64,000 bases of DNA from an uncultured virus (IMG/VR IMGVR_UViG_2061766007_000545) (IMGVR_UViG_2061766007_000545); one strand, 5' to 3'; positions 1-63,443 are shown, counted from the stretch's first letter. Notes: generated by a model from the sequence alone, not told the origin. Made by a program: numbers and translations.

Positions 1-493
1 GCAAGTTCCGTCTATCAGATACTCTTGTGCATAAAATTGGAGAAGAAGTTTATCCAAACGCAGGATATCGAATTTGTAAATGTGTAAGATGTGGTAAAAA
101 GGAGATTGAGTGGGTTCGTATGTTGAATGCGCGCCTTCCTATTGTAACGACAGAGGGTGAAGTTAAGTATGAAATGGATAAAAAAGGAAAAACTCAATAA
201 AAATATGACGGCGCGCTGTGTATGTAGAGATTGTAAGTATTGGATGGGTAGTGAATTCAGTAAAGATGGAGTATGTGTTCATTTGCCCGCTTTTGGGAGA
301 ACTATTGCCGAAGGATTTTGTTATTGGGCAGAAAAACGAAAAGGAGAATAAGTATGGATTTATTTGATATGTTTTTATTTGATGATGGTATTATTGATAG
401 ATTTACTGATGAAGATTATGAGGACATGGATCCACATATGCCCATTCTTCCAGATAGATACTTTAGTTCAACAAGCAGACGGAATTACAGAAC
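1..493 (+). repeat. Allelic duplicate of ~1119-1611 (strain variant across an N-gap)
   Basis: Near-identical to 1119-1611 with scattered SNPs; ends at a 10-N gap. Confidence 0.85.
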
Positions 494-592
494 NNNNNNN
501 NNNCGTATCTGAGTTGCGTGCCCGCATTAAACAGCTTGATAATATAGTAAGGAAACAGTATAAAAAGATTCGAAGATTGGAGAAGAAAAAGA

Positions 593-784
593 ATGGATAA
601 AGTAACATTTAAATATGAAAGAAAAGGCGATAAAGAATTTTATAGAGATATCGAGTTTTCTTTTGATTATGATCCCGATGATGGAATTGAAAACCTTATT
701 GATGGTTTTAAAACTTTTCTTTATGGATTAAGCTATCACCCAAATACTATTGAGAAATCTCTTGGTGGCGATAGTGATGACTAG
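593..784 (+). CDS. hypothetical phage protein (63 aa)
   Basis: ORF in a tightly packed + strand run with overlapping start/stop. Confidence 0.65.
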   Translation: MDKVTFKYERKGDKEFYRDIEFSFDYDPDDGIENLIDGFKTFLYGLSYHPNTIEKSLGGDSDD

Positions 785-1061
785 AGAAATATTTTGTAAA
801 GATATGATGGGTAAATGCCCATATAACCTTGAGGGACGATGCACTAAAGAAGTGGTTAAATTACGCTTTGGAGTTTGTCTCTCAATTTATGATGTAAGCG
901 CGAATGGTCAGATGACACCGAAAACTCATTTAGATGACGGTGGCGCGCCTCGTATTAAAGAAGTAATTGAGGAAGGAGAATGGAGAAAATGGGAGCAATC
1001 AGAAGATTCGAATGTGTCGGAAGAGGAATCGCCCACTTCCTCCGAACAGGTCACTACTTAA
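777..1061 (+). CDS. hypothetical Cys-containing protein
   Basis: MTREIFC start overlaps the upstream stop. Confidence 0.55.
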   Translation: MTREIFCKDMMGKCPYNLEGRCTKEVVKLRFGVCLSIYDVSANGQMTPKTHLDDGGAPRIKEVIEEGEWRKWEQSEDSNVSEEESPTSSEQVTT

Positions 1062-1318
1062 CTCATCTCTTCAAAGATGAAAGTGATTTTCTTCCTTGTA
1101 TTATAATCACAGACGGAAACAAGTTCCGTCTATCAAATACTCTTGTGCATAAAATTGGAGAAGAGGTTTATCCAAATGCAGGGTATCGAATTTGTAAATG
1201 TGTAAGATGTGGTAAAAAGGAGATTGAGTGGGTTCGTATGTTGAATGCGCGCCTTCCTATTGTAACGACAGAAGGTGAGGTTAAATATGAAATGGATAAA
1301 AAAGGAAAAACCCAATAA
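980..1318 (+). CDS. hypothetical protein with CxCxxC motif
   Basis: RBS GGAGA before start; frame conserved in the duplicate allele at 1-200. Confidence 0.55.
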   Translation: MEKMGAIRRFECVGRGIAHFLRTGHYLTHLFKDESDFLPCIIITDGNKFRLSNTLVHKIGEEVYPNAGYRICKCVRCGKKEIEWVRMLNARLPIVTTEGEVKYEMDKKGKTQ

Positions 1319-1322
1319 AAAT

Positions 1323-1923: not shown

Positions 1924-2868
1924 ATGATTCTATTTGTAGTCGGTATTGTTGTTGCGATTGCACTGTTCCTAGGGTGGATGGTTTATGATGAAGAGGCAAA
2001 TATTTTTGCTGCTCTTTTTGCTTCACTCTTAATTGTTGCCATATTTACGGTTCTCGGATGTATTCGATCAGTGCCAACAGGTAATACAGGTGTTGTAGTT
2101 ACTTTTGGACGAGTTGAAGATTATACTCTTGATTCGGGTATTCACTTTGTAGCACCTTGGAGATCAGTAAAGAAGATGGATAACAAGACACAGATTTATA
2201 ATATTGACCTTTCTTGTTTTTCTTCTGATATTCAGGAAGTAACTATTAAGTACGCCGTAAACTATAGCATTGATAAAGAGCACGCGCAGGTAATTTATAA
2301 GACCATTGGTATGGATTATGTTACCACTGTAATGGAACCTAAAGTTCAAGAAGCAGTAAAAGGTATTGTTGCTAAATATACCGCAGAACAGTTGATTGGA
2401 CAGCGAGGTAACCTGTCCGCGCAGGTAGAGGAAGTTCTTACCGCATCTCTTGCCGCATATCATATTAATGTAGTATCTACATCTTTGAGTGATATCGACT
2501 TTACTGATGCATTCACTAATGCAGTAGAGGCAAAGCAGGTAGCGGAGCAGAATAAGTTGCGCGCGAAAACCGAACAGGAGCAGGCAATTATTGAGGCTAA
2601 TGCTGCGGCAGAAAAGCAGGTCATCAAAGCAAAAGCAGATGCAGATTCTGCAATTCTTGCGGCTGAGGCAGATAAGAAAGTTCAGCAGATTAATGCAGAT
2701 GCTGCTGAGTATGCTGGTCAGAAAGAGGCAGCAATTCTATCTAATATTGGCGAGAAAATTACTCAGTATCCCGGTTTAATTCAGTATTATTACTATCAGA
2801 AGTGGGATGGAACTCTTCCGCGCACTATGTTTGGTGAGGATAATGGGGTAATTCTAAACCTAGAGTAA
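1924..2868 (+). CDS. SPFH/band 7/prohibitin family membrane protein
   Basis: Two N-terminal TM segments, VPTGNTGVVVTFG and LDSGIHFVAPW motifs, AVEAKQVAEQ coiled coil; partial second allele at 3804-4423. Confidence 0.9.
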   Translation: MILFVVGIVVAIALFLGWMVYDEEANIFAALFASLLIVAIFTVLGCIRSVPTGNTGVVVTFGRVEDYTLDSGIHFVAPWRSVKKMDNKTQIYNIDLSCFSSDIQEVTIKYAVNYSIDKEHAQVIYKTIGMDYVTTVMEPKVQEAVKGIVAKYTAEQLIGQRGNLSAQVEEVLTASLAAYHINVVSTSLSDIDFTDAFTNAVEAKQVAEQNKLRAKTEQEQAIIEANAAAEKQVIKAKADADSAILAAEADKKVQQINADAAEYAGQKEAAILSNIGEKITQYPGLIQYYYYQKWDGTLPRTMFGEDNGVILNLE

Positions 2869-3548: not shown

Positions 3549-5178
3549 NNNNNNNNNNAGGCACATGGATTACTGTTTAGATATGAAGTTGCGCTGAATG
3601 CTTGGAGAGCAGACACAAATAATGAGAAAAAGTCTAAGGCTTTGGAGTATATTCAACAGGAAATTGTTAAGTGTCTTGTAAAAGCGTTTGAAACTGAAGA
3701 TCCGTTGCCACCTATTAAAGAAGTTAAAATCACTCTTCTCGATAAAGAAAAAGGTATTTATGTTTTAGCTAAAGAAAATAATTAAAAAGGAGAAAATAAA
3801 TTTATGATTCTATTTGTANNNNNNNNNNNNNNNNNNNNNNNNNNNNNNNNNNNNNNNNNNNNNNNNNNNNNNNNNNNNNNNNNNNNNNNNNNNNNNNNNN
3901 NNNNNNNNNNNNNNNNNNNNNNNNNNNNNNNNNNNNNNNNNNNNNNNNNNNNNNNNNNNNNNNNNNNNNNNNNNNNNNNNNNNNNNNNNNNNNNNNNNNN
4001 NNNNNNNNNNNNNNNNNNNNNNNNNNNNNNNNNNNNNNNNNNGCCTAAGGTACAGGAAGCGGTAAAAGGTATTGTTGCAAAGTATACCGCAGAACAGTTG
4101 ATTGGACAGCGAGGTAACTTGTCCGCGCAGGTAGAGGAAGTTCTTACTGCATCTCTTGCCGCATATCATATTAATGTAGTATCTACGTCTTTGAGTGATA
4201 TTGACTTTACTGATGCATTCACTAATGCAGTAGAGGCAAAGCAGGTAGCAGAGCAGAATAAGTTGCGTGCAAAGACTGAGCAGGAGCAGGCAATTATTGA
4301 GGCTAATGCCGCGGCAGAAAAGCAGGTTATTAAAGCAAAGGCAGATGCAGATTCTGCAATTCTTGCGGCAGAAGCAGATAAGAAAGTTCAGCAGATTAAT
4401 GCAGATGCTGCTGAGTATGCTGGNNNNNNNNNNNNNNNNNNNNNNNNNNNNNNNNNNNNNNNNNNNNNNNNNNNNNNNNNNNNNNNNNNNNNNNNNNNNN
4501 NNNNNNNNNNNNNNNNNNNNNNNNNNNNNNNNNNNNNNNNNNNNNNNNNNNNNNNNNNNNNNNNNNNNNNNNNNNNNNNNNNNNNNNNNNNNNNNNNNNN
4601 NNNNNNNNNNNNNNNNNNNNNNNNNNNNNNNNNNNNNNNNNNNNNNNNNNNNNNNNNNNNNNNNNNNNNNNNNNNNNNNNNNNNNNNNNNNNNNNNNNNN
4701 NNNNNNNNNNNNNNNNNNNNNNNNNNNNNNNNNNNNNNNNNNNNNNNNNNNNNNNNNNNNNNNNNNNNNNNNNNNNNNNNNNNNNNNNNNNNNNNNNNNN
4801 NNNNNNNNNNNNNNNNNNNNNNNNNNNNNNNNNNNNNNNNNNNNNNNNNNNNNNNNNNNNNNNNNNNNNNNNNNNNNNNNNNNNNNNNNNNNNNNNNNNN
4901 NNNNNNNNNNNNNNNNNNNNNNNNNNNNNNNNNNNNNNNNNNNNNNNNNNNNNNNNNNNNNNNNNNNNNNNNNNNNNNNNNNNNNNNNNNNNNNNNNNNN
5001 NNNNNNNNNNNNNNNNNNNNNNNNNNNNNNNNNNNNNNNNNNNNNNNNNNNNNNNNNNNNNNNNNNNNNNNNNNNNNNNNNNNNNNNNNNNNNNNNNNNN
5101 NNNNNNNNNNNNNNNNNNNNNNNNNNNNNNNNNNNNNNNNNNNNNNNNNNNNNNNNNNNNNNNNNNNNNNNNNNNNNG

Positions 5179-6625: not shown

Positions 6626-7068
6626 TGGAAGTTTTTGTAGTAACAGCAGGTGAGTATTCGGATTATCGTATCGATGCAGTCTTTCTTAATTTACGCGAAG
6701 CAGAGAAATACTGCGCTTTCACAAATAAAGGAAATCCTGATTTGTATTTACAAATTGAAACTTATGAAACCGAAGATGGCGCTGAATGGTATTCGCAAGA
6801 TACTCCGGTTTATTATTGTTATCACTTTAGTACAACTAAAAGAGACGGTGATTTTGCGCGTACTCTAATACCCTATGCGTACGTTTCTGAGAAACAGAAG
6901 GATTCTATTACTTATAAAAAACGAGGGGATATAGTATACACTACTTTTACAATCTATCTCGATAAACCAAGCAGAGAAGAAGCAATTAGAGTCGCAAAAG
7001 AACTTATGCGGGATAACCCTTACTCAGAAGAAAACACAGAAGAAGCTTCGTATCCATATCCATTTTAA
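6625..7068 (+). CDS. hypothetical protein
   Basis: TAATG coupling; VFVVTAGEYSDYRIDAVF N-terminus. Confidence 0.7.
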   Translation: MEVFVVTAGEYSDYRIDAVFLNLREAEKYCAFTNKGNPDLYLQIETYETEDGAEWYSQDTPVYYCYHFSTTKRDGDFARTLIPYAYVSEKQKDSITYKKRGDIVYTTFTIYLDKPSREEAIRVAKELMRDNPYSEENTEEASYPYPF

Positions 7069-7079
7069 TCGCTAACCCA

Positions 7080-8340
7080 CAAATTTACGGACGCGCGCAG
7101 TCAACGTAAAACCTCTGCGTTTTCTCGAAAAATTTTTCAGAAAAAACCTCGACGAAATTTCGAGGACGGAAAAAAATCGAGTTTCCTCTCGTTTTCTCCT
7201 CTTCTATATAGAAAGAAAAAAACAGAAAATATATACGTACTACTTCTACGTACTACTTATACATACTACTCCTACATATATTATATACGTAGGAGTATAC
7301 GTATTTAAAGGAGAGAAAAACCGAGGAAGCAGAACCAAGCGCCGAAGGCGCGCCGGTTCCGAAGGGTGAATCTGGAGCGAGCCGAAGGCGAGCGACAGAG
7401 AGGGGAGTCTCCCCTTTTTCTACATAAATAAGTACGTATATAACTACGTATAAAAGAGCGGAACCCACTCGAAAAACGGTCGCGCGCCTTAAACGTATAA
7501 AAGGGGCGAGCCGCCATTCTACGTAGATAAGTACGTAGATAAGTAGGGAGATAAGTACGTTAGGGGAGAAAGAAAAGAGGGGGGGCGAAAGAGGGGCGAG
7601 AGAAAACGAAAGGGGCGAGGGAACCTCGAGGAGAAAGAGGAGAGAGGGGAGTGAGGAGTCGTACGTACAATAATACGTATTATAGAGGCGGAAAACGCCG
7701 AAAATTCGACGTAGAGTAAATGGACGTAGAATAAATGGACNNNNNNNNNNGTATATAAATACGTATATAACTACGTATAAAAAAGCGGAACCCACTCAAA
7801 AAACGGTCGCGCGCCTTAAACGTATAAAAGGGGCGAGCCGCCATTCTACGTAGATAAGTACGTAGATAAGTAGGGAGATAAGCACGTTAGGGGAGAAAGA
7901 AAAGAGGGGGCGAAAGAGGGGCGAGAGAAAACGAAAGGGGCGAGGGAACCTCGAGAAGAGAGAGGGGAGCGAGGAGTCGTACGTATAATAATACGTATTA
8001 TAGAGGCGAAAACGCCGAAAATTCGACGTAGAGTAAATGGACGTAGAATAAATGGACGTAGAAATTGTGACGCCAAAAAGTCCGATGTGCCATCGCGAAT
8101 GCGGAGGCTTTCTTTTTTGTGTTTTTGCTATCGAAGGGAAATCGGCTTAAGTGGTGAAGGGTAGAGGAAAGTGGTGAAGGGTACTGAAAATGCGGGGCGC
8201 AATTTCCGGCTGATTTCAAATTTTCTTTTTCTCTAAATTTTCTCCATTTCAAAATTAGAAAAATTTCAAAAAATATTATATAATATATATAGAAAAAGAG
8301 AAAAGAAGAAGAAAAAATTCCGAAAAAATTCGAAAAAAAA
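7080..8340. other. Non-coding TACGTA-rich, purine-skewed block (candidate origin or terminus region); partly duplicated as alleles across the gap at 7741
   Basis: No credible ORF; about 10 TACGTA in 7234-7680; tandem TACGTAGATAAG and ACGTAGAnTAAATGG repeats; polypurine tract 7560-7655. Confidence 0.55.
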
Positions 8341-8453
8341 TTTTGGGAGAAAGGTAGGAAAAATTTATGTCTAGTTACTTTTATTTCGAAGCAAANNNNN
8401 NNNNNTCGAAAAAATTTCGAGAAAAAATTTTAGGAGAAAGGTAGGAAAAATTT

Positions 8454-9104
8454 ATGTCTAGTTACTTTTGTTTCGAAGCAAAAAATTCTACGGGCGCAAG
8501 GTTTACTGTTGCTTCGTACTCTCGCTCCAATATGATGTACCGAGTTTGGGAGGAAGTAGGTGTACCGTCTTACGCAGAGGCTCGTGTTATTACTCCCGAA
8601 GTAATTAACGAGGCGATTAACGAGGCGCGCGTAATGAAGCAGGCAAGAGAGGAGAATATCGCGCACGTTAATGATTCGATTAACGATATTAAGGATATCG
8701 CGCGCGGTGCAAGACCCGATGCGATTGAGGATTTGTGGGGTCGGATCTTGGACTATAAGGACGAGATTAAGGAAGCTGAGGGAGAAGTCCACCAGATCGA
8801 TGGGATTATCTACGAGTTGTATACGTGGAGAGATATGGTGGAGTANNNNNNNNNNATTAATGATTCGATTAGCGATATTAAGGATATTGCGCGCGGTGCA
8901 AGACCCGATGCGATTGAGGACTTGTGGGGTCGGATCTTGGATTATAAGGACGAGATTAAGGAAGCTGAGGGAGAAGTCCACCAAATCGATGGGATTATCT
9001 ACGAGTTGTATACGTGGAGAGATATGGTGGAGTACGAGAACGAGGGTTGGACCTTTTACGGACATATTGAGGGTTGGTTGCCCGGTGAGAAACCCGAAGA
9101 TTAA
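8454..9104 (+). CDS. hypothetical coiled-coil protein (internal duplication is an allele artefact)
   Basis: RBS GAAAGGTAGG; the repeated segment flanks the N-gap. Confidence 0.7.
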   Translation: MSSYFCFEAKNSTGARFTVASYSRSNMMYRVWEEVGVPSYAEARVITPEVINEAINEARVMKQAREENIAHVNDSINDIKDIARGARPDAIEDLWGRILDYKDEIKEAEGEVHQIDGIIYELYTWRDMVEXXXXINDSISDIKDIARGARPDAIEDLWGRILDYKDEIKEAEGEVHQIDGIIYELYTWRDMVEYENEGWTFYGHIEGWLPGEKPED

Positions 9105-9146
9105 CGCTGTCAAATTTTACTTTCGAAAAAAGTAAAGAAAGAAAAT

Positions 9147-9175
9147 TTGAAAAATAACTGAAAATCAGTTATAAT
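9147..9175 (+). promoter_or_regulatory. sigmaA-type promoter
   Basis: TTGAAA-17 bp-TATAAT. Confidence 0.7.
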
Positions 9176-13068: not shown

Positions 13069-13199
13069 TGGCTTTTTGCTCCTTTCTGTTTCTTACACCC
13101 TTATTATACTACTATAAAAAGAAAATGTCAACAGTTTTTTTATAAGAAATTTTAGGGGAATTAGACCTCTAAGGTCTAACTACGTAGAAGGCGCGCCTT

Positions 13200-13433
13200 C
13201 TACTTCGCAACATATAATGCTAAAGAAAGAACGAAGATTGTAATTATATGAGTTACTACGAAAAAGAAAGTAGATTTTATTTCACAAAAGCAATCACAAA
13301 AATTTTCCCAAAAAGTGAATTTTTCTTGATAAAAATCTTCAAGTGCTTCTTTATTTTCTTTTAATTCTTTTATCGTCGCTTTAATCCATAAGATTTCGCC
13401 AATTATTAGCATCACAATCCAAATATATTTCAT
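13200..13433 (-). CDS. small two-TM membrane protein
   Basis: Hydrophobic termini; RBS AAAGGAG. Confidence 0.65.
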   Translation of the reverse strand: MKYIWIVMLIIGEILWIKATIKELKENKEALEDFYQEKFTFWENFCDCFCEIKSTFFFVVTHIITIFVLSLALYVAK

Positions 13434-13434
13434 T

Positions 13435-28756: not shown

Positions 28757-29696
28757 AAAGGCTTTTACTCTAAAGGATTGCGCCTATTGCGGTGGTACGT
28801 TTGGACCGGATTACTTTCTTCCGGTTCAATCAATTTTCTATCCTGATGGATACGCACCTATTTGCTTTGACTGCGCCGACCGCTATATCGCGGAGGGAGG
28901 CCCTGAGAAAGAATGGGACAATGTTGATAAGCTTTGTCAAATGCTTGATATTCCTTTTATTCCTGCGAGATGGATTGAGATTAGGGATATGAATAGCAAT
29001 GGTGCTTTTGGACGATATGCGGCTATATTTAAGGAAGAGAAGTATACCGGGATTGGCTGGGGTGAGTATTACAAGCATTTTAAAGAGTTAAGAGAAAGTA
29101 GTAGATTAGAGGAAGAATTACCTGGACTAAAGGAAGAAAAGCGCAGAAAACTTGTTGAGCGCTGGGGCGGGAATTATGATGATGAGGCNNNNNNNNNNNN
29201 NNNNNNNNNNNNNNNNNNNNNNNNNNNNNNNNNNNNNNNNNNNNNNNNNNNNNNNNNNNNNNNNNNNNNNNNNNNNNNNNNNNNNNNNNNNNNNNNNNNN
29301 NNNNNNNNNNNNNNNNNNNNNNNNNNNNNNNNNNNNNNNNNNNNNNNNNNNNNNNNNNNNNNNNNNNNNNNNNNNNNNNNNNNNNNNNNNNNNNNNNNNN
29401 NNNNNNNNNNNNNNNNNNNNNNNNNTGTGACTAGAGATGTCGTTGATGAAACGATTAAGAATATGCAGTCATTTAATCAGAGACTTTATATTAATGAGAA
29501 TGGAATTGGAGAATCTATTACTGATCGTATTGAGAAACTTAAGTACGCAGAACAAGCAGCAGATAGTTCTCTTCATTTCTTAGATAATGAATATGATATT
29601 TCGACCTATGATACTGCGGGGTATAATGAATTAATTAAAGAGGACTTTGTGGCTGACGTAGACAGCGCGCCCTCGTTGGATGATAGTGATGGCTAA
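28734..29696 (+). CDS. putative terminase small subunit with N-terminal Zn finger (gapped)
   Basis: CAYCG/CFDC motifs; directly upstream of TerL. Confidence 0.55.
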   Translation: MGLKPKIKKAFTLKDCAYCGGTFGPDYFLPVQSIFYPDGYAPICFDCADRYIAEGGPEKEWDNVDKLCQMLDIPFIPARWIEIRDMNSNGAFGRYAAIFKEEKYTGIGWGEYYKHFKELRESSRLEEELPGLKEEKRRKLVERWGGNYDDEXXXXXXXXXXXXXXXXXXXXXXXXXXXXXXXXXXXXXXXXXXXXXXXXXXXXXXXXXXXXXXXXXXXXXXXXXXXXXXXXVTRDVVDETIKNMQSFNQRLYINENGIGESITDRIEKLKYAEQAADSSLHFLDNEYDISTYDTAGYNELIKEDFVADVDSAPSLDDSDG

Positions 29697-31485
29697 TACA
29701 TTACCCGATATTAATACCTCTTATTTAAAGAGTAGAGTTGAAAGTACTATACGCGGTTCACGCGATGGCGTTGAAATTGAGAAAGGAGTTATAGTTAATG
29801 AAGATTGGATGAAAGGAAATTTCGATAAGGTTGGAGATTTATTCTCTTTCTTTACCGCTTATCCCGATTTATTTCTTGATCTTATTACTCCCTCTGATAG
29901 TGGAATACATTTATTCTTCTATCAGAGAATTTTCTTGCGCGCCGCCATGCGATTTCAGAAAGTTTATATTACTGCGTGTCGTGCGTACTCTAAGTCTTTC
30001 TTAACAATTCTTGCTTTGATACTCCAATGTATTTTTATTCCTGGTCGAAAGGTTTTCATTTGTGCGCCTAATAAATCTCAGGGTGCGCAAATTGCTCGTG
30101 AAAAAATTTATGAGATTTATCGTATGTGGCCCCTACTTCGAAAAGAAGTCGTGGGTTGTGAATTATCGGATACGCCCGGTAATTTTGGTAAAGACTATGT
30201 TACTTTAGTATTTAAGAATGGAAGTCAATTTGATGTAGTAGGTGCTTTGAATAGTACACTTGGTGGACGTAGACATGGTGGTCTTCTTGATGAGATTAAG
30301 CTTCATGATGAAGAAGAAATTAACACAATTGTATTACCTCTTCTAAACGTTTCTCGTCGTCAGCCGGATGGTACTGTTAATGAGCGTGAGCCGAACCAAC
30401 AGGTAATATGCGCGACATCAGCATGGCTTAAGACATCGTTTGCTTATGCGAAACTTATTGACTTTTTCCAACTTTCAATTATCTTTCCAAAACAAGCATT
30501 TGTATTTGGATGTGATTATAGAGTACCTCTACTCCATGGACTTATCTCTCGTTCTTATATTAATGAGCTAAAGACTTCTCCTTCTTTTAATGAGATTTCT
30601 TTTGCAACAGAGTATCTAAGTCTTTGGCAGGGCGCATCTGCAGATTCTTGGTTTAATTACGAACGTCTTGCGCGCTATCGTAAAATTAAAAATCCTGATA
30701 CGCACGCAAAATTTAAAGGGAATCCTAATTTATTTTACTTATTATCAGCGGATATTGGACGTATTCATGACCAAACCGTTGTTACAGTCTTTAGAGTAAA
30801 TGTTGATTCTAGTGGAATCTATCATTCTACTGTGGTAAATATCATAGTACTTGGACGCACGGCAGAAACGCGTACTTTCTTCCGTCAAGCGATTGACTTA
30901 AAGAAATTAATACGTGATTTTGAGCCTCGTGAGGTCGTAATTGATACAAATGGTCTTGGTGTAGGTTTTGGTGAAGAAATGACAAAATCTCAAAAAGATC
31001 CTTTTACCGGCGAGGTATTTCCTGCGTATGGTTTTAAGAATGATGAAGATTTTAAAAAGACTCAACCGAAAGATGCTATTCAGATTCTTTATGGAATTAA
31101 AGCAAATAGTACTCTAAAACCTAAAATTCAAAGTAATTCTTACACTCAGATAAATAGTGGAAAGGTTAATTTCCTTATTTCCGAACAAGAAGCTAAGAGT
31201 GCCTTACTTGCAACGAAACAAGGAAATCAAATGAGTGTTGAGAAAAGAATTCAGCGATTAATGCCTCATGAAATGACTTCTCGTCTTTTTGATGAAATGC
31301 TCAATCTGCGTTTAAAGAAAATCGGTGTAGGAACTGATATTGCACTTGAACCTATTAATACGCGGTATCCAGATGATAAGTATTATTCTTTTGCATATGG
31401 GTTATGGCGCATCAAAGAGCTTGAAGATGAGCAAAGTTCGCGCATGAAGAAAAAAGTAAAACGCACTCTTATCTTTTATAATTAA
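29689..31485 (+). CDS. terL: terminase large subunit
   Basis: Walker A-like ACRAYSKS, Walker B GLLDE, motif III ATSA, nuclease ADIGR and DDKYY. Confidence 0.9.
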   Translation: MANTLPDINTSYLKSRVESTIRGSRDGVEIEKGVIVNEDWMKGNFDKVGDLFSFFTAYPDLFLDLITPSDSGIHLFFYQRIFLRAAMRFQKVYITACRAYSKSFLTILALILQCIFIPGRKVFICAPNKSQGAQIAREKIYEIYRMWPLLRKEVVGCELSDTPGNFGKDYVTLVFKNGSQFDVVGALNSTLGGRRHGGLLDEIKLHDEEEINTIVLPLLNVSRRQPDGTVNEREPNQQVICATSAWLKTSFAYAKLIDFFQLSIIFPKQAFVFGCDYRVPLLHGLISRSYINELKTSPSFNEISFATEYLSLWQGASADSWFNYERLARYRKIKNPDTHAKFKGNPNLFYLLSADIGRIHDQTVVTVFRVNVDSSGIYHSTVVNIIVLGRTAETRTFFRQAIDLKKLIRDFEPREVVIDTNGLGVGFGEEMTKSQKDPFTGEVFPAYGFKNDEDFKKTQPKDAIQILYGIKANSTLKPKIQSNSYTQINSGKVNFLISEQEAKSALLATKQGNQMSVEKRIQRLMPHEMTSRLFDEMLNLRLKKIGVGTDIALEPINTRYPDDKYYSFAYGLWRIKELEDEQSSRMKKKVKRTLIFYN

Positions 31486-38439: not shown

Positions 38440-39360
38440 TGCATCTGCTTTTATTTGTGAGCCACTATTATATAAAAAGGATTGTTACATCTATCCACCT
38501 ACTGTGAAAGAAGTAACAAAAGATCCATTTTTTACACAATATCTCAAAATACTCACAATAACTCAAGAAGACCTAAATGATTTATTTGAGGATAAAGCGG
38601 TGGAAGGTCAGAAAGTACCTACTCCTTTTGCTTTCATGTTCGGAAATTATTTAGTAAACGAGCAAGTGCGTGCGATTACAGAAAAGGCTTTTGAGTTCTT
38701 TTTACATCAAAAAGTAACCTTTATTGTAAAAGCGGAAGTTGTGATTATTGGANNNNNNNNNNAATGGAAGGTCAGAAAATACCTACTCCTTTTGCTTTTA
38801 TGTTCGGAAATTATTTAGTAAACGAGCAAGTGCGCGCGATTACAGAAAAGGCTTTTGAGTTCTTTCTACATCAAAAAGTAACCTTTATTGTAAAAGCGGA
38901 AGTTGTGATTATTGGAGATATAAATGAAGTAGCGAATAAGATTGAAACCATAGATGATTTAGTTTATCTAAATAATGAAAATTTCTTTGAGTTTCAAAAT
39001 CTTATTCGATTAAGTATAGGCGAAGATAAAGTGGAACCCTACGTCGAAAAAATCGACGAGGATCCACGGGTTCGCGCATTAAAAGCAAAATTCCGAAAGA
39101 ATCGGAAGATAGTTGCCCAAGTAAAAGCCAAAACAGGTCAAAGTTTATCTTTTGAATCTAGTTTGGTAGCAATTTGTTGTATGGGAATTGGTTTAAATCC
39201 ACTTAATATTGGAGAGATAAGCTATGCGTCTCTAGGTCCACTTATTCAAATGTATCAGCGTAAAGAAAAATACGATATTGATATACGAAGTATCTTAGCG
39301 GGCGCAGATGCTAAAAAGATTAAACCAGAGTATTGGATTGGAAACTTAAACAAAAATTAA
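38432..39360 (+). CDS. virion-module protein (allele duplication at gap 38753)
   Basis: Two ORF pieces overlap in sequence. Confidence 0.6.
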
Positions 39361-54500: not shown

Positions 54501-57409
54501 AAAAGATTCAAGAGTTAAACGAAAGAATCTTTAATGAGTTCCAATGTCATTATGAAGATTTTACCAAAGGTATGGGAGCTAGTTTAGCTTCAATGCAGAC
54601 AAACAATGACTATGGTTACTGTATTGCATGGGCGCTTTATAATGATACTCCTATTAATCATGTATCTTTTGGTACTATTAATTCTGCNNNNNNNNNNTAA
54701 GATTGAGGAGTATAAAGCTACTCAAGAAGTTTTAGTAGAAACTATTAGAAATGCAGATAAGGCATTTTATCAGAAATATAACGCATATATTCAAGAAGGT
54801 ACTTGGATTGATGAGAAATATTTAGATGATGAAAAATATTATCTTGATGCTGTTTCGACCCTATATAATTCTTGCTTCCCGAAAGTAAGTTATAATATAA
54901 GCGTTGTAGATGTTTCTCCTTTTGAAGGCGGTGAAGGTTACTTCGNNNNNNNNNNTGGCACTCTTTATTCGAAGAATTTACGTGGTGCACTAGCAGAAAT
55001 GAATGAGTTAAAAACTCAATATAATAAAGCACTTACGGATAAAACTTCTCTTGAAACTCAGATTTCTAATTATAAAGANNNNNNNNNNCGGTACTCTTTA
55101 TTCGAAGAATTTACGTGGCGCGCTAGCAGAAATGAATGAGTTAAAGACTCAATATAATAAGGCACTTACGGATAAAACTTCTCTTGAAACTCAGATTTCT
55201 AATTATAAAGANNNNNNNNNNCGATGCTGTTTCGACCTTATATAATTCTTGCTTCCCGAAAGTAAGTTATAGTATAAGCGTTGTAGATGTTTCTCCTTTT
55301 GAAGGCGGTGAAGGTTACTTCGNNNNNNNNNNCGAAAGTAGGAATACCATTAAAGTTCAAAATTATAAGAATCAATTCCAAGATTTATTCCATAGATTAA
55401 CTGCTACTGTTCAATCAGTTAACTACTCTTCTGGCGCTTATCAGCGCGCAGCAGAAGCAATTAAAGCAGATCAAACNNNNNNNNNNCCCTACTTCGGTTG
55501 ATGATATTATTGGTTCAACAGGAGTTAAGTTTGCCCTTACTTGGAAAGGCTTCTCGTTTAAACACGGAGATGGTACTAGTTCTATTGTTCTTGGACAATA
55601 CGATAAGTTAGTAAGCGGTTCTACCGTAACNNNNNNNNNNCGCGATTGGGTGATAAGACTTATATCGAAGATGTAGAATATTTTGGATATGAGTTAAAGA
55701 ATGGTATTAAAACACCTTATAAGGAAGATATTGTAATTACAGAAATTACTTATATTTTAGATAATGAAAGTAGGAATACCATTAAAGTTCAAAATTATAA
55801 GAATCAATTTCAAGATTTATTCCATAGATTAACTGCTACTGTTCAATCAGTTAACTATTCTTCTGGCGCTTATCAGCGCGCAGCAGAAGCAATTAAAGCA
55901 GATCAAACCATTGATACTGCTTATCTCCAAGATAGTTTTAATCAGAATGCTATTGCGATTAGAAATGCAAAGAACCAAACAATTACTATTGATGAATTAG
56001 GTATTACAGCTACAAGCGCAGATACGCCGAATTATGTATTGCGCATTATCAATGGCGGATTATTTGTAAGTAAAAATGGTGGAGAGACTTGGGAAACTGG
56101 TGTAAGTGGTGAGGGTATTAACGCCAATATGCTTACCGCTGGTCAAATTAATACCTCGATAATCCAAGTAATGGATGGTGATTGCCCCGCTTTCCGTTGG
56201 GATTCAAGGGGTATTAATGCTTATGACTATGATTTAATAAATGATCATGCAACTAACTTTAATTACACAAAAGGCGTTAGATATGATAGATTTGGTATTT
56301 ACGGTTTTGATGGATTGGTAATTAGTGGACCGAATGCCTTTAATCCTACTTCGGTTGATGATATTATTGGTTCAACAGGAGTTAAATTTGCACTTACTTG
56401 GAAAGGCTTTTCATTTAAACACGGAGATGGTACTAGCTCTATTGTTCTTGGACAATACGATAAGTTAGTAAGCGGTTCTACCGTAACGACCTATGGTTTG
56501 AAGATTACTAGTAATGGAACTGATACTGTTGAGATTAATGAAAGAGGAGATGCTTCATTTAGTGGTAGTGTTACTGCGCTAAGCGGTAATATTGCTGGGT
56601 GGGTAATTGGAACTGATTCCTTATCAAAGATATATAATATTGATGGACATATTTATTCTAATAGTCTTAATACCAATTCTTCTAACAATGCTATTAATAT
56701 TGCAACAGATGGAACTGTTACCTTTGCAGTTAACTATGCAGGTGAGATGACTGCTACTGCCGGTACTATTGGCGGTTGGACGATTAGCGCGAGTGGACTT
56801 GACCACACGGGAGTAGGTATGTCTCCTACTGGTACAAACGCCTTCTATGCGGGAAGTAAATTTGCTGTTGCGCAAGATGGTACTTTAACCGCAACCGGTG
56901 CCACTATTGCAGGCGCGCTTACAGCATCGAGTGGTCAGATTGGTAACTGGTTAATTAGTGACGGCGGATTAAAGAGCGCGAATGATGAAATTCAATTTCT
57001 TCCGGTTACGAGTGGAGCCGCAATTAAGGTTGGAAATAAATTTACAGTTAATGCAGATGGTACGCTGAGTGCTACCGGAGCTAGTTTTTCAGGTTCTATT
57101 AGTGGTTCTACTATTACTGGTGGTTCTATTAATATTAATAATAAATTTAAAGTTTCTAATGGTGGAGCGATAAATGCTGTTGCTGGTAGTATTGGTGGAT
57201 GGAATATTTCTGTAACTGGATTAAGTGCTGGTAGTCTTAGTCTAGTTGGTGGTCTTGCCCCTAAAATAAAGGCTGTAGGTCTGACAGGATCTATAATTGT
57301 TTTACAAGGATTTTCTGGAAGAGTAGAAATTGGAGGAGATGGTTTAACAGTAACGAATGCTTTTGGACATGGTTATAGATATACAGCAGATGGACCTATA
57401 CAGATTTAA
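51539..57409 (+). CDS. large baseplate hub/tail spike (Tal-like) protein, fragmented by gaps
   Basis: NVNGSNTLTF N-terminus, YGVNLNSIQRTLDSKSIVSKL, coiled coil, C-terminal GxI(G/A)xW repeats. Confidence 0.7.
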
Positions 57410-57845: not shown

Positions 57846-57883
57846 AAAGAAAACGCTTAGGAGTTAATCCTAAGCGTTTTTTT
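57846..57883. terminator. bidirectional terminator
   Basis: AAAACGCTTAGGA-gttaa-TCCTAAGCGTTTT between convergent genes. Confidence 0.85.
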
Positions 57884-58616
57884 ATTCCCAATCCTCAACT
57901 TTAATTTCTTTAAACATTTCTTTTGAAGCATAGTAGCCAATTCCTACTGCATCTGCTTCATCTTCTGTTAAGGATACATCGTGCCATTCTTTTGCTAAGA
58001 GCTGCATTGAGCGTTTCTTATCCGTTCTCGCGCGTCCCTTAACTCCACATCCTTTGCGCCATGTATTAGTTGGGTAAACCTCGTACTTAATACCCTGTTC
58101 ATAACAAGCCTCCATTAAGATACCCTGAAGGCGTGCTAATGTTTCAAAAGTTGTAACTCCAATACTATATCCACCTAAGTTATCTTGAAATTGGATTCCT
58201 TCAATAGCAATACCATCTGGTTGCCAGCATTGTATCATTGAGAGAAGCCAGTTTTTTGTTGCATTATCACGCGCAATTTCATTACTTAAAGTAGTTTCAA
58301 AAGTTCCATACTTTATAAGTTCTGCACCATCATAAATCGCATACCCCGTAACTTTTGTTGCTTGATCAAGAGCGATAATTCGTTTCTTATCTTTCTTCTT
58401 TGCGACTATCTTATCACTTGGTGCATATAAGGAATTTTGTTTGCAAACAGGACACTCGCGCTTTGTACGTATTTTCTTATACGGTGCAAAAACGCGGTGT
58501 CCCTCATTACATTCAAATTCCATCTGCGTATCAAGATTTTGGTATGTATCAGAGATAACTTTCCATCCATCTTTTTCAAGTTCGTCTTGAATTTCTTTTA
58601 GGCTTAACTTTGACAT
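57882..58616 (-). CDS. RuvC-like Holliday junction resolvase with N-terminal Zn-binding domain
   Basis: IIALDQATKVTGYAI, IAIE, DEADAVGIG; CNEGH...CPVC. Confidence 0.8.
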   Translation of the reverse strand: MSKLSLKEIQDELEKDGWKVISDTYQNLDTQMEFECNEGHRVFAPYKKIRTKRECPVCKQNSLYAPSDKIVAKKKDKKRIIALDQATKVTGYAIYDGAELIKYGTFETTLSNEIARDNATKNWLLSMIQCWQPDGIAIEGIQFQDNLGGYSIGVTTFETLARLQGILMEACYEQGIKYEVYPTNTWRKGCGVKGRARTDKKRSMQLLAKEWHDVSLTEDEADAVGIGYYASKEMFKEIKVEDWE

Positions 58617-59569
58617 TACTTAAGTCCCGAACTTCCGAAACCGCCATTTCGTCCGTCATTCTCTATTTTTGCTACATCATCTACTTCCATAAATGACGCG
58701 CGCTGTACTTGCGCAAGTACGAGTTGCGCGAATTTTTCACCTTTACCAATCGTAAAGTCATTACCGTGAAGGATTGATTTAATAATAATATTTCCATTAT
58801 CATCAAATTCATATTCAATATCCTTAATAGCCGGTTCAATATTCTCAATAATGACACAAACTTCGTCACGATAACCACTATCAATGGTGCCAGGCGTGTT
58901 TGCTACGCGAAGTTTAGTCTTGAGTGCGCGCCCACTCTTTGGACGAATTTGAAACTCATATCCGATTGGAATTGCTACTTTAATACCAAGAGGTACAAGT
59001 ACTGTCTGACCAGGTTTAATTGTGATATCATCAAACGCGAACACGTCCATACCAGCATCAGTCATATGTGCATAGGCGGGCATTTTTGCATTTTCATTAC
59101 AGTAACTAATTGGAATAAGGATTGTTTTATTTGCAGTTCCCTCTGCCTCTACATAAGCATTAGCGGTAATTTCAAGTAACTGCTTAATAAAACTAATTTT
59201 TTGAGCAGAAATTGTTGCATTTGAGTTATCATAAATATCTTCAATTTCTTTAGCCGTATTAATAAAGCTTTCCATTATTTGAGAAGCTGTTTGTCCTGAA
59301 GTATTAAGAGCCTGAAGTATAAGACGCTGTGTATTAGGATTATGAAGACTTTTTTCATATTCTCCTAAGTAAGCAGGAGCCAGTAACTTAAACTCTTCCT
59401 CGGGAAGTTCAAGCATTGAAGTAATAAATTCAAAGTCAGAATCTTCTGCTTTTAATTGTGAAGCAAGGTCAAGGATTTCTTTTATTTGGGATTCATTCTG
59501 TTCAAGCGACTTTTCAACCGCTTCTTGCGCTAAAATGCGAGCATCTTCTTCGCTTTTAACATTAATCAT
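58616..59569 (-). CDS. dut: trimeric dUTPase with long N-terminal extension
   Basis: AGMD, RPKSG, GTIDSGYRDE, FAQLV, RNGGFGSSG motifs. Confidence 0.9.
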   Translation of the reverse strand: MINVKSEEDARILAQEAVEKSLEQNESQIKEILDLASQLKAEDSDFEFITSMLELPEEEFKLLAPAYLGEYEKSLHNPNTQRLILQALNTSGQTASQIMESFINTAKEIEDIYDNSNATISAQKISFIKQLLEITANAYVEAEGTANKTILIPISYCNENAKMPAYAHMTDAGMDVFAFDDITIKPGQTVLVPLGIKVAIPIGYEFQIRPKSGRALKTKLRVANTPGTIDSGYRDEVCVIIENIEPAIKDIEYEFDDNGNIIIKSILHGNDFTIGKGEKFAQLVLAQVQRASFMEVDDVAKIENDGRNGGFGSSGLK

Positions 59570-60426: not shown

Positions 60427-60913
60427 AATTATACCTCTTTGCATATTGATTTGAAGAAGCAAGCGTTACTCCCAATACTTCATCAAAGCGTGCAGTATCG
60501 TTCATTATATAACGCCCATATTTTACAACTATATTGCTGTATTGGAGTATTTGACTCATCTTTTTATCTGCGAGAATTTCTTCTTCAGTATATCCCGTAT
60601 ATATTACTATATCACTATTATCTCCATGCCCAAAACGAAAAGTTTCAATTAACTCAATTAAATCATCTATAGAATCAAGTGGCTCCAAACCACAACAAAC
60701 TATTGCTTTTGTAATGGGATTAGAAGCATACTGATTATAGAGAATTTCTGCATCCATCAAAATAAGATTTGGCTTCTGCGCCAAGTCTGAGTTTTGGCAT
60801 ACATGACAGCCGTTAAGCTTATCACATTTGAATGTACATGTAGGGAAGGAGACATACATAGAAGGGACACGATAGTTAATCAAATCTTCTACTAAAATAC
60901 CTTTAATAACCAT
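60416..60913 (-). CDS. nrdG: anaerobic RNR activating protein (radical SAM)
   Basis: CTFKC...CQN, GLEP, IYTGY, SSNQ; near nrdD. Confidence 0.85.
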   Translation of the reverse strand: MVIKGILVEDLINYRVPSMYVSFPTCTFKCDKLNGCHVCQNSDLAQKPNLILMDAEILYNQYASNPITKAIVCCGLEPLDSIDDLIELIETFRFGHGDNSDIVIYTGYTEEEILADKKMSQILQYSNIVVKYGRYIMNDTARFDEVLGVTLASSNQYAKRYNYEN

Positions 60914-61150
60914 TTAGAACTCCTTATTTCTTAATCCTTCTATAAATCCTTTTGTATATTGCCTATTTGCTTCTTCTTTTATATTGCTCAAAACCTCAGG
61001 AAAGAAACTTCCTACAAGATACTCAAAAGAGACAGGAATCCTCTTAATAGCTTCTTCGGAGTACCCTGCGTGGTCTGCACGCAGGGAAGCAATTGCTTTT
61101 TCAATAACTCCAAGAGGAACGCTTCCTAAGCTTTTATATTCTTCTTCCAT
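60914..61150 (-). CDS. hypothetical protein
   Basis: Translationally coupled between nrdD and nrdG. Confidence 0.65.
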   Translation of the reverse strand: MEEEYKSLGSVPLGVIEKAIASLRADHAGYSEEAIKRIPVSFEYLVGSFFPEVLSNIKEEANRQYTKGFIEGLRNKEF

Positions 61151-63075
61151 TAAGCATTCTCTCCTTTATCATTAACTGGCATCCATTCTCTCATATCAAA
61201 TTCTTCAAGACGAGGCGCCGACCAAGAATTGGTACAAGTATAGAAACCAACCGTTCTTGTGTATTCACGAGCTTTGCGCTCTCCACAAACCGGACAAACG
61301 TCACCATAAAAACTATGGAAGTTCTTGCACTGGCTTGTTACGCCATTAAATGCAAAGTAGGTAACACCTTGCTGCGCAACCCAGTTAAGCATATCCCATG
61401 CTTTTTCAGTAGAATCGAAAGGAGCGTCAATATTGATATGTTCGATAGAACCACCATTACAGAATCTATCAAATGTTGCACAGATTTTTGTACGCTCTGC
61501 AATAGAAGCTTTAATTCCAAGAGGAATCCACTGGTTGCCATAAAGTGGAAGATCTGTAACTACTTTATCAGGATAAAGAAGCTTATCCGCCTTCATCATC
61601 TTTGCGGCCGCTTGTTCAGCAGGAACTTGTTCTACATTACCGCGTTGTGTCTTATCAAGATAGAAGTCGTCCATAGTATTATGAATTACTTTAAAAATAC
61701 GTTCACCGAAACTATAGGCATCATCGGTGTAGATAGTATTTCCAAATTCGTCTACCTTTACATATCCAAATGTTTTCATTGCTTCGTAGATACCATTAAT
61801 TCCAGTAGTATCGTACATATGCTCGAAATCAATCAGCTTATAAGAGAAATTAGGTAAGAGTCCCTTTTCAACATTTCTCTTAATAATTCCTCTAACTACA
61901 TTCAAAACTTTTAGGTTATCTACTTCGAGGTCGCGCAACTTCACAAGAAAATCTTGTTCATTTTCAGAAATATAAGCAAGGCGCGCGAGATTCAACGTAC
62001 AAACCTTTACAGAACCAACACTAAGTGCAGTACCACCAATTGAATTAAAATAGAGGTCTTCAATAGAAGACTTGAGACGACAGCAATTAGATAGGCTATT
62101 TACAGAACTATCAGTAAAGAAGTTAAATAAATTCCATTTACGAGATGCCTCACATGCCCATTTCGCAAATTCTTCATCAACAAACTTTCCATCCACATAA
62201 AGCAGAGAGGCAGTCAAAACCGGAAAAGTAAATACATTTTCTTCTCTAACTTTATTTACAATATCAATAAATCTTTTTTGGAATTCAATAATTTCTTCTT
62301 CTTCATCAATCATAAAGGTCCCGTCAGGGAATACTGAACCACCAAAGATAGACTCAAAATATGGGTGGTCAAACACAGAAACATTTGTGAACGCGCATTG
62401 ATCAGTTCTAATCCAAGGCTGGTTTAGACGATAAATTAATGATTGAATCTGCTGATCACGATAGATTTCCGGAGACTCTGTATAGTAGTTCTCTGCTATA
62501 TCTTTCTTCCAATACCAATAAAGGTAAGGAATTAGATTTGGTAATCCCACAGCGCCCGACTGACGACGGCTAAGCCATGCGATTGCTTCCATTAGAATTT
62601 GAATAAAGGAATCTAAGTGGCGCGCAGGTTTTGCATTATAATTCTCAATAAAGAACAATCCTCTTTCTACAATATCTTTGATATCATAAGCATAACAATA
62701 AGGATAAAATGTTGCGGTATCAAAATCATGAAGATAAAGTGAATAAGACCATAAATCTTCGATAATCTTATTAGCATCTTTAAAACCATATTTCTTCTGT
62801 AGCTCATGGTAAATCTTATTATATGCAAGGAGCTTCCTATGCGGTTTGCTCATTTCACTCATTAGAGTTACAATATCTTTCTGTGAGATATTTGAATTTG
62901 CATCAATTGATGCATTAGCTACATTTTCTTTATCAATAAAATTATCAATGAAGTCAGTAAAACTGAGCTGTCCATCTGATAGTCCTTGAAGTTCTGCAAA
63001 CTCTTCGCCGTATTTCTCTTGGAGTTTATTCAGTTGGGTAGTGAAATTTTTACTAAGACGAACATTTATATTCAT
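61150..63075 (-). CDS. nrdD: class III anaerobic ribonucleoside-triphosphate reductase
   Basis: LYLHD, QSGAVG, SNCCRL, TLNLARLA, PAE, CPVCG, RTVGFY glycyl-radical motif. Confidence 0.93.
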   Translation of the reverse strand: MNINVRLSKNFTTQLNKLQEKYGEEFAELQGLSDGQLSFTDFIDNFIDKENVANASIDANSNISQKDIVTLMSEMSKPHRKLLAYNKIYHELQKKYGFKDANKIIEDLWSYSLYLHDFDTATFYPYCYAYDIKDIVERGLFFIENYNAKPARHLDSFIQILMEAIAWLSRRQSGAVGLPNLIPYLYWYWKKDIAENYYTESPEIYRDQQIQSLIYRLNQPWIRTDQCAFTNVSVFDHPYFESIFGGSVFPDGTFMIDEEEEIIEFQKRFIDIVNKVREENVFTFPVLTASLLYVDGKFVDEEFAKWACEASRKWNLFNFFTDSSVNSLSNCCRLKSSIEDLYFNSIGGTALSVGSVKVCTLNLARLAYISENEQDFLVKLRDLEVDNLKVLNVVRGIIKRNVEKGLLPNFSYKLIDFEHMYDTTGINGIYEAMKTFGYVKVDEFGNTIYTDDAYSFGERIFKVIHNTMDDFYLDKTQRGNVEQVPAEQAAAKMMKADKLLYPDKVVTDLPLYGNQWIPLGIKASIAERTKICATFDRFCNGGSIEHINIDAPFDSTEKAWDMLNWVAQQGVTYFAFNGVTSQCKNFHSFYGDVCPVCGERKAREYTRTVGFYTCTNSWSAPRLEEFDMREWMPVNDKGENA

Positions 63076-63305
63076 ACTTCATAAACCCCCTTCTTCTCTC
63101 GCTTTGGCTCGGCGTTTACCCAAGCTACTGCTTCATTAAACTGCATCGGAGGTAGTCCGTCTACTACTAAAATTGGTACAGTATGAAAACCCATTCTCTG
63201 CACAGCTTCAATATCATTAACTTCTTTGTACTTAATATTTTTCATATCCATTTTGCGCGCGATAACACAGCATTTGGGACACCCCGTTGAATATAAAGTA
63301 ATCAC
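63072..63305 (-). CDS. glutaredoxin/NrdH-like protein (allele copy at 63337-63441)
   Basis: YSTGCPKC, TVPILVVDG. Confidence 0.8.
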   Translation of the reverse strand: MITLYSTGCPKCCVIARKMDMKNIKYKEVNDIEAVQRMGFHTVPILVVDGLPPMQFNEAVAWVNAEPKREKKGVYEV

Positions 63306-63443
63306 TATTAGTTGCCTCCCTCACGCNNNNNNNNNNTACAGCTTCAATATCATTAACTTCTTTGTACTTAATATTTTTCATGTCCATTTTGCGCGCGATA
63401 ACACAACATTTAGGACACCCCGTTGAATATAAAGTAATCACTA

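Follow-up and report, generated by a model that had tools for sequence, protein, structure and literature searches.

A 64,000-base stretch of DNA from an uncultured virus (IMG/VR IMGVR_UViG_2061766007_000545), referred to here as the window, contains the palindrome GCGCGC exactly 61 times, and the same excess is an old, ancestral, clade-wide trait of 110–145 kb siphophages from animal and human guts. We propose tentatively, as a reading that is plausible and short of probable, that the density of GCGCGC is held by a selection-like force, for a reader intrinsic to the phage lineage. Full-text literature searches returned no prior report of GCGC or GCGCGC over-representation in phages.

The window includes 1,565 N in 38 runs, mostly of 10 N each (examples lie at 7741–7750, 8846–8855, 38753–38762 and 54166–55640), and has 62,435 called bases, with a G+C content of 36.0% over all letters and 36.9% over called bases. 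Many of the 10-N joins are flanked by 94–98% identical duplicates of the same 50–490 bases (~5 kb in total), and open frames are interrupted across the joins; we take the duplicates to be strain variants left uncollapsed in a metagenome scaffold. The 61 sites sit within 305 copies of GCGC and span 129..63396, with first bases at 129, 211, 943, 1247, 1329, 2559, 6184, 7093, 7348, 7482, 7809, 8625, 8700, 8889, 9779, 9856, 11556, 13191, 14419, 16214, 17050, 17694, 18610, 21681, 23808, 23828, 24334, 24468, 27096, 27796, 28667, 29665, 29937, 30670, 32631, 35173, 37583, 38832, 40460, 40811, 41052, 44580, 46734, 48960, 51127, 52058, 53237, 53935, 54275, 55118, 55444, 55876, 56913, 58698, 58926, 59915, 59989, 61981, 62620, 63255 and 63391. 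An earlier note on this DNA had estimated by eye about 60 sites, about 10 of them in duplicated alleles, against a zero-order expectation of about 2 at ~35% GC, and exact counting bears these figures out: all 11 of its example positions are present, the zero-order expectation is 2.15, and 12 of the 61 sites lie within second copies of duplicates, ten of them repeating a site and two being toggled alleles.

Against the 61 observed sites, Markov models of order 1 (dinucleotide), 2, 3 and 4 predict 4.3, 16.4, 36.6 and 56.0. GCGCGC is the hexamer with the top z-score under order 1, and its observed/expected ratio (O/E) on that model is ~14, at ~850–980 sites per Mb. With the second copies masked (57,427 bases), 49 sites remain, where the dinucleotide, order-3 and order-4 models predict 3.6, 30.0 and 44.8; in 200 simulations of the masked window under a first-order Markov model the mean was 3.8, the standard deviation 2.1 and the maximum 10. 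Most of the excess disappears into the high-order models, since the inflation also affects the sub-words GCGC, GCGCG and CGCGC. The primary enriched word is GCGC, whose 305 copies compare with 104 on the dinucleotide and 203 on the trinucleotide expectation (CGCG, 173 vs 89), and the hexamer adds a further surplus of ~1.6-fold on the order-3 expectation, before and after de-duplication.

The three allele pairs that the earlier note had described as toggling the site by synonymous transitions are as stated, each synonymous in an open frame. The site at 2559..2564 (plus strand; TTG CGC GCG) lies in an SPFH/Band 7 gene and reads GCGTGC in the copy at 4265–4270 (CGC>CGT); the site at 38832..38837 (plus) reads GCGTGC at 38668–38673, across a 10-N join; and the site at 55118..55123 (plus; GGC GCG CTA, encoding G A L) reads GTGCAC at 54985–54990 (GGT GCA CTA), with two transitions at mirror positions. 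All four of these changes are CpG transitions. A few intergenic copies centre a longer inverted repeat, such as the 20-bp perfect palindrome GTAGAAG-GCGCGC-CTTCTAC at 13184..13203, which adjoins a TTAGACC..GGTCTAA element, and similarly the copy at 14419.

Codon usage does not account for the excess. On a crude mechanical set of open reading frames (ORFs; greedy longest, at least 50 amino acids (aa), 82% of the window), the sites fall in codon registers 17/11/12, with 21 more outside the called ORFs, in agreement with the earlier claim that they occur in both genes and intergenic DNA. That note had named disappearance under codon- and dinucleotide-aware null models as the outcome that would overturn its observation; beyond the dinucleotide results above, 500 synonymous-codon shuffles within genes gave 8.2 ± 2.6 GCGCGC (maximum 16) against 40 observed, and 500 codon-order shuffles gave 4.6 ± 2.2. 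GCGC itself fell to 116 ± 8 under the synonymous shuffles, against 242 observed. GCG makes up 19% of Ala codons and CGC 18% of Arg codons, and thus neither is preferred; nevertheless, 17 of 63 Ala-Arg dipeptides are written GCGCGC, vs 2.1 expected from codon usage, and the contexts of register 1 (11/48 vs 1.2) and register 2 (12/38 vs 2.1) are realised to a similar degree, for an overall range of 23–32%. Coding and non-coding DNA are both affected in two of the relatives introduced below, G003 (coding 84 vs 6.8, non-coding 6 vs 0.3) and G005 (38 vs 1.8 and 4 vs 0.2). Because all frames and non-coding DNA are affected and the codon-aware nulls are survived, the excess acts at the level of DNA.

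The lengths of alternating G/C tracts define the word more closely. Tracts of length 4, 5, 6, 7 and 8 number 171, 44, 47, 17 and 2 in the window, and the probability of extension, 0.18 at first, rises to 0.60 at the 5-to-6 step and then falls to 0.29, 0.11 and 0; 42 of the 47 length-6 tracts start with G. When six enriched genomes were pooled, GCGCG was followed by C in 354 of 682 cases (0.52) vs 25 of 103 (0.24) for the extension of GCGCGCG (Fisher p 1e-7), and the longest tracts were under 10 bases. GCGCGCGC has 0 copies in the window vs 4.4 expected under order 3, extension is flat at ~0.2 in two neutral relatives, and the CG phase is equally enriched in some relatives. These data show that GCGC is enriched, that GCGCGC is further enriched and that longer alternation is disfavoured. 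There was no extended flank specificity in the window (GGCGCGCC, 5 observed vs ~5.9 if flanks are independent). A reading as Z-DNA-forming (GC)n tracts is disfavoured: tracts of at least 8 are depleted, and other purine-pyrimidine alternations are not favoured over their non-alternating neighbours.

Searches for close relatives by megablast on phages, or with the single portal and terminase proteins on viral, metagenome and genome contigs, gave no match. The large terminase gene (29680..31485, plus strand), which itself holds two GCGCGC sites (29937 and 30670), led to relatives by way of an alignment: of 7,998 candidates scored, 2,307 are homologues at E ≤ 1e-10, and an alignment of 21 of these yielded 74 IMG/VR loci and 7 genome-collection loci. 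In most of the 57 loci of at least 8 kb, GCGC is present at 1.5–4 times what dinucleotides predict and GCGCGC at anything from several-fold to 30-fold. Counts in nine whole or nearly whole records (G001–G009) were compared with the dinucleotide model: GCGCGC occurs 183 times vs 12.6 expected in G001, 55 vs 2.3 in G002, 90 vs 7.1 in G003, 64 vs 6.7 in G004 and 42 vs 2.0 in G005. It is the top hexamer in all five, with O/E in relatives of 10–24. G008 and G009 are neutral (11 vs 3.9 and 13 vs 3.6), and G006 and G007 have none.

Taking a GCGC O/E of at least 1.8 as enriched, we placed 43 rows on a quick terminase tree. Thirty-four are enriched, and these are present on both main branches; 7 are neutral, 4 of them being the nested long-branch G008/G009 clade and 3 borderline (O/E 1.7–1.8); and the remaining 2, which avoid the word, make up a single nested clade on a long branch. 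Reading TAG through raises ORF coverage from 0.59–0.76 to 0.90–0.94 in G001, G002 and G004, which appear to be TAG-recoded (code 15-like), while the window, G003 and G005–G009 use the standard code; the GCGC trait thus spans this code divide. The titles of the 7 genome-collection records name water-buffalo, goat and Hadza samples. The clade contigs in the genome collection (L076–L082), some of which are 116–129 kb long and probably whole genomes, are filed in metagenome-assembled genomes (MAGs) named Bacteroidales, Clostridium, Methanobrevibacter, Bacilli, Muribaculaceae and Lachnospiraceae. As these names belong to unrelated phyla and the composition of the contigs is unlike that of the bins' other contigs, we take the phage contigs to be mis-binned.

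Phages usually avoid short palindromes, and the genomes of this clade follow the rule for other words. In the window GGCC (7 vs 83), GATC (66 vs 225), CATG (61 vs 148) and CTAG (72 vs 224) are all scarce, and six palindromic hexamers (AGGCCT, CAGCTG, GAGCTC, GCATGC, CCCGGG and GCCGGC) have zero copies. Such a profile is classic for restriction avoidance, and it differs between relatives. GTAC stands at only 1.46 times the dinucleotide and 0.87 times the trinucleotide expectation. G006 and G007 extend avoidance to GCGC and CGCG too (O/E for ACGT 0.13, CATG 0.12–0.15, CGCG 0.08, GATC 0.00, GCGC 0.2 and GGCC 0.09–0.15). In 34 of the 43 clade rows, by contrast, the sign is reversed for GCGC and GCGCGC: across G001–G005 and the window, GCGC O/E stays at 2.6–3.5 while GATC ranges over 0.10–0.63, GGCC over 0.08–0.89 and CTAG over 0.00–0.71. 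The differing profiles imply different hosts, and the excess is constant across them.

The bacterial DNA that was sampled does not carry the excess. In 20 kb from each of 40 Bacillota genomes, a convenience sample chosen for a permease match and long contigs and not at random, the median GCGC O/E is 0.79, the highest value is 1.37, and the hexamer is not in excess; GGCG, GCGG and GCCG are mildly enriched in these bacteria too. The best identity of the G003 permease to any of 401 Bacillota genomes is only 41%. Backbone contigs of five MAG bins that hold relatives have GCGC O/E of 0.17–1.01. The excess as a host signature was accordingly rejected on these MAG backgrounds and Bacillota samples. 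The cultured relatives closest by portal, at ~28% identity, are 140-kb Enterococcus phages, phAss-1 and SPbeta-like phages. Among outgroup phages, no excess was found in T5 (GCGC 193 vs 212; GCGCGC 9 vs 8.2) or Enterococcus phage VRE9_2 (85 vs 67; 0 vs 1.2), phAss-1 (560 vs 407; 36 vs 21) was counted with those lacking it, and a Staphylococcus SPbeta-like phage avoids GCGC (2 vs 53.5).

These comparisons bear on the simplest alternative, that the excess is a by-product of composition, codon usage and the avoidance of GGCC, GATC, CATG and CTAG. The order-4 model, which absorbs most of the excess (56 vs 61), and the mild rise of GGCG, GCGG and GCCG in bacteria speak for it. However, a 5- to 9-fold excess is left after the synonymous and codon-order shuffles, non-coding DNA is equally enriched, GCGC O/E is ~3 whether that of GGCC is 0.08 or 0.89, and bacteria and outgroup phages of similar G+C and avoidance lack the excess. 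On the strength of the shuffles, the independence from GGCC and the non-coding enrichment, this explanation is close to refuted, and we give it hardly any credence.

A second alternative invokes methylation-linked biased repair, in which a methyltransferase, from the host or unrecognised in the phage, marks the word and a mismatch endonuclease converts T:G to C:G there, so that copies build up. Very-short-patch repair shapes the abundance of CCWGG and CTWGG in E. coli, and thus offers a mechanism able to raise the frequency of a methylated palindrome. Several observations fit: GCGC differences between close relatives are mostly transitions (71 at the inner CpG, 40 at outer positions), as are the toggles of the window; C5 methyltransferases are present in 4 of 5 sampled MAG bins, so such enzymes are common in these habitats; and the frequency and O/E of GCGCGC fall within the range of alternate highly iterated palindromes (HIPs) of cyanobacteria, each of which has a matching methyltransferase (PMC4390886).

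Neither the enzymes nor the footprint of such repair were found in the phages. The earlier note had advised looking for a C5-methyltransferase or Vsr-type gene; run on the relatives' records, this search found PF00145 (C5 methyltransferase) in 0 of 9, Vsr in 0 of 5 and PF02086 in 0 of 5, with PF01555 in 1 of 5 (G005 only). No DNA methyltransferase was present among the 82 of 104 G003 ORFs (at least 95 aa) scanned against Pfam. Precursor words are not drained in the window (GTGC 115 vs 109.6, O/E 1.05; GCAC 94 vs 99.9, 0.94), and GTGCGC, GCGTGC, GCACGC and GCGCAC stand 1.7–3.3 over the dinucleotide model and 1.0–2.1 over order 3. The clade thus differs from the E. coli case in its lack of Vsr and C5 methyltransferase in the phage records, in its undepleted T-precursors and in an effect that is far larger. 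Furthermore, recent losses exceed gains (see below), the opposite of what a mutation-level process gives, and the excess is constant across phages whose avoidance profiles imply different hosts. We regard biased repair as improbable. Of the two possibilities raised in the earlier note, a methylation- or repair-driven bias and selection for a dispersed site, the former was not supported as far as the phage's own enzymes are concerned, and the latter is the better fit to a profile-independent excess in which losses outnumber gains.

We then consider how sites are placed and replaced. Site counts per 5 kb are near Poisson (dispersion index 1.09 in the window, 1.0–1.5 overall), spacings fit an exponential, and there was no clustering, preferred spacing or periodicity at the scales examined. 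Where a peptide context that permits the word is conserved between G003 and a distant relative, it is written GCGCGC in 8/55 cases in G005, 11/35 in G002, 16/46 in G004 and 28/54 in G001, or 15–52%, as against 0/43 in G008 and 0/35 in G007. The number of sites shared with G003 across the four distant enriched relatives is 23, vs 16.9 if positions are independent. Sharing is barely above independence; therefore density is kept and positions are not. At 12% divergence GCGC is kept in 56 of 82 cases vs 144 of 312 for other G/C tetramers (p 5e-4), and at 20% in 50 of 95 vs 262 of 659 (p 0.02). In the avoiding lineage (G006/G007) loss is fast, with GCGC kept in 4 of 16 cases vs 976 of 1507 for others.

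The direction of recent change is informative. When changes were polarised in five triples with an outgroup, gains and losses were 14/23 for GCGC, 8/16 for CGCG and 119/68 for the other fourteen G/C-only tetramers (Fisher p 2e-4). GCGC is three-fold over-abundant, is lost at an ordinary rate and shows more losses than gains among young variants, and it therefore stands above its mutational equilibrium. Weak selection, or a conversion-like force acting after mutation, leaves such a signature.

Together, these observations suggest a model in which GCGCGC, with its core GCGC, would be a highly iterated palindrome of a phage lineage, present about once per kb genome-wide. The force would act on the number of sites and not on particular sites, and would belong to the phage lineage and not to one host. 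A word with two-fold symmetry suggests a dimeric protein of duplex DNA, and the reader may be a two-fold symmetric protein of the phage replication, recombination or packaging apparatus that must have a site close by wherever it acts on an AT-rich genome. Such a need suggests in turn a processing enzyme, for example a RuvC-like resolvase or a nickase, and our best guess is that the sites would be points at which DNA is cut or nicked while branches are resolved or the DNA is processed. Every member has genes for a RuvC-like resolvase, gyrase, a primase with a DnaB-type helicase and several HNH-like nucleases. In a variant of this model the word would be a self mark that sets phage DNA apart during destruction of the host's; a T5-dmp-like nucleotidase is encoded in the clade. 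The more specific proposal, that GCGCGC is the phage's own "genome word", a density-selected palindrome read by phage machinery all along the chromosome as processing cut or nick sites or as a self mark, is possible, and we put it forward with more doubt than the general one.

A number of results weigh against a selected, phage-encoded reading of the word. Across five pairs at 1–5% divergence, GCGC is kept in 588 of 682 cases and other G/C-only tetramers in 3060 of 3606 (p 0.38), and hexamers are kept in 90 of 109 vs ~87 expected from per-site divergence; with GCGC lost at the ordinary rate and hexamers kept as expected, individual sites are not strongly protected. The polarised test is small, its outgroups are 8–25% diverged, and weak-to-strong changes (530) outnumber strong-to-weak ones (413), a possible sign of errors in polarisation. 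A graded excess extends over GCG/CGC, GCGC, CGCG and GGCG, a pattern that context-dependent mutation also gives. No candidate reader protein was found: a gene-content contrast of five enriched vs four non-enriched genomes gave no consistent gene, flagging only three patchy ORFs (an HNH protein, a 174-aa unknown and a tail protein), none of which is in all enriched genomes. The neutral G008 and G009 share the core replication and recombination genes at similar identity, so a reader within the core machinery would need a changed specificity there. Finally, a host factor common to many gut hosts may lie behind the excess.

Several of these points would be expected under a neutral, context-dependent mutation or repair bias of the phage replication machinery, in which alternating G/C runs are favoured and long runs are removed by slippage. 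That machinery has a polymerase of the Pol III alpha type, and no mismatch repair genes were seen. The graded excess, an extension probability that climbs with tract length, the near-neutral turnover at 1–5% divergence, the independence of positions between distant relatives, the absence of an accessory gene correlate in the contrast and the fact that the trait follows phage phylogeny all accord with such a bias. By contrast, the polarised losses of GCGC and CGCG exceed gains while other G/C tetramers are gained; the bump at exactly six bases and the G-start phase (42 vs 5 in the window) are hard to obtain from polymerase errors; and G008 and G009 have the same polymerase family, at ~61% identity, yet show flat extension. 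We therefore consider mutation bias unlikely, though less so than methylation-linked repair.

Among selected readings, the word might also be Chi-like or anti-nuclease, shielding linear phage DNA from a host AddAB/RecBCD-type enzyme. The Chi sites of Bacillota are short and GC-rich, and the dispersal of GCGCGC at high density would suit such a role. Chi is oriented, however, and is read on one strand, whereas GCGCGC is palindromic, and its enriched non-palindromic neighbours showed no strand or positional asymmetry along the genomes; the constancy of the excess across phages that probably have different hosts is a further objection. These neighbours are equal on both strands, and we find a Chi-like explanation very unlikely.

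Phage T5 offers a parallel for the processing sites proposed here. T5 DNA carries site-specific nicks with the consensus R/GCGCRGG, which has a GCGC core (PMC3517423), and the enzyme that acts at this GCGC-core word is the phage's own. T5 is a large siphophage with terminal redundancy, and the clade resembles it in having terminal repeats (IMG/VR classes G002, G003, G005 and G007 so) and a T5-dmp-like deoxyribonucleotidase. The T5 nick word differs in being asymmetric, on one strand and at few sites. T5 lacks a GCGC excess, and its nicking is therefore an analogy and not evidence.

The nearest known systems are the HIPs of cyanobacteria, short GC-rich palindromes that are hyper-abundant at ~500–2500 per Mb, with O/E of ~15 or more (PMC4390886). 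The best known is HIP1, GCGATCGC; alternates include GGCGCC in Calothrix PCC 7103 (PMC4390886), and each alternate is accompanied in the same genome by a matching methyltransferase that recognises the word or its core (Elhai 2015; PMC4390886). HIP sites are described as kept between genomes beyond neutral expectation (Xu et al. 2018), and HIP function as still an open question (PMC5861425). The likeness to HIP1 drawn in the earlier note is apt, as ~850–980 sites per Mb and an O/E of ~14 lie within the alternate-HIP range given in PMC4390886. As described for HIPs, GCGCGC occurs in coding DNA in any frame and in non-coding DNA, overlapping and one-off words are inflated with it, and the trait is lineage-wide with lineage-specific loss or replacement. 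The systems differ in three respects: firstly, the carrier of GCGCGC is a phage clade and not a cellular genome; secondly, no cognate methyltransferase was found in the phage records examined for PF00145 and PF02086; thirdly, GCGCGC positions are nearly independent between distant members, and their placement is Poisson-like. GCGCGC has the abundance, O/E and frame-independence of a HIP and, in the records searched, no encoded methyltransferase.

Among the G003 ORFs scanned against Pfam, the replication and recombination genes are gyrase, a UvrD-like helicase, ligase, RNase H, Pol III alpha, a DnaB-like helicase and primase, and RecJ-like and RuvC-like proteins; other genes include a reverse transcriptase and several GIY-YIG and HNH genes. 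Private to G003 is a Mom-family DNA-modification protein (E 5e-40), and the genome has in addition a family-2 glycosyltransferase and, for nucleotide metabolism, a nucleobase permease of the xanthine/uracil type, a nucleoside 2-deoxyribosyltransferase and a dCMP deaminase (L090 4832–5980, L090 12346–13347, L094 16369–17628, L094 17630–18142 and L094 15886–16365, all on the minus strand). Together, these genes hint at non-canonical nucleotide metabolism or DNA modification. Four paralogous proteins of 250–300 aa in G003 (L090 3962–4705, L090 10043–10942, L091 7785–8564 and L091 9363–10118) match the DNA-binding parts of HNH/homing-endonuclease PHROGs; three have no Pfam match and one matches only DUF2726, and some are conserved in the clade.

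The gene set of the window is that of a large siphophage. Besides the large terminase, it has a portal (31500–33035), a tape-measure protein (44117–49810 and adjoining pieces), a sigma-like protein (27049–28422), virion proteins, Dit, tail proteins, NrdD/NrdG, an SPFH protein, a T5-dmp-like deoxyribonucleotidase and a RuvC-like resolvase (57882–58616). All relatives keep its dUTPase-like protein, which is 317 aa long (58616–59569, minus strand); the dUTPase domain is confined to residues ~147–316, with a weak dCTP-deaminase-like match, and the long N-terminal extension of 145 residues has no domain assignment.

A block of small leftward genes in the window (13690–24520, minus strand) contains a repeated intergenic cassette of ~90–105 bp, with examples on the minus strand at 13721–13787, 14948–15014, 18373–18458, 19990–20076, 21560–21660, 21923–22008, 23300–23389, 17012–17091, 18796–18880 and 24055–24103. 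It has an invariant 19-bp palindrome, TTAGACCTTTAAGGTCTAA, followed on the minus strand by TTGACA, a spacer and TATGNTATACTT, an arrangement resembling an early promoter of the sigma-70 type preceded by an operator or hairpin. The excess of the k-mers TAGACC, AAGGTC and AGACCT in the window is due to this cassette, of which GCGCGC is not a fixed component. Relatives have another intergenic palindrome, the 8-mer GCCCGGGC, in 7–11 copies spaced 0.4–1.8 kb apart within one 5–9 kb block of small genes (G003 45269–52082, G001 94361–103453, G002 90754–95697 and G009 7052–13610; loci L092, L106–L107, L087 and L133). With 11 copies vs 0.19 expected in G003 and zero in the window, GCCCGGGC is probably the counterpart regulatory element of the relatives' early region.

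For work on gut phages, GCGCGC marks this clade strongly by composition, as the MAG bins that receive the mis-sorted contigs lack it, and its excess distorts k-mer-based host prediction. A palindrome that has been driven up, throughout a deep and widespread clade, until between a quarter and a half of permissive codon contexts are filled with it points to a sequence-specific DNA transaction as yet undescribed for phages. If this is true, the clade would hold a phage counterpart of cyanobacterial HIP1 in a genome 30 times smaller, in which every gene is testable, and would thus be a small, tractable system for the thirty-year-old question of the role of HIPs.

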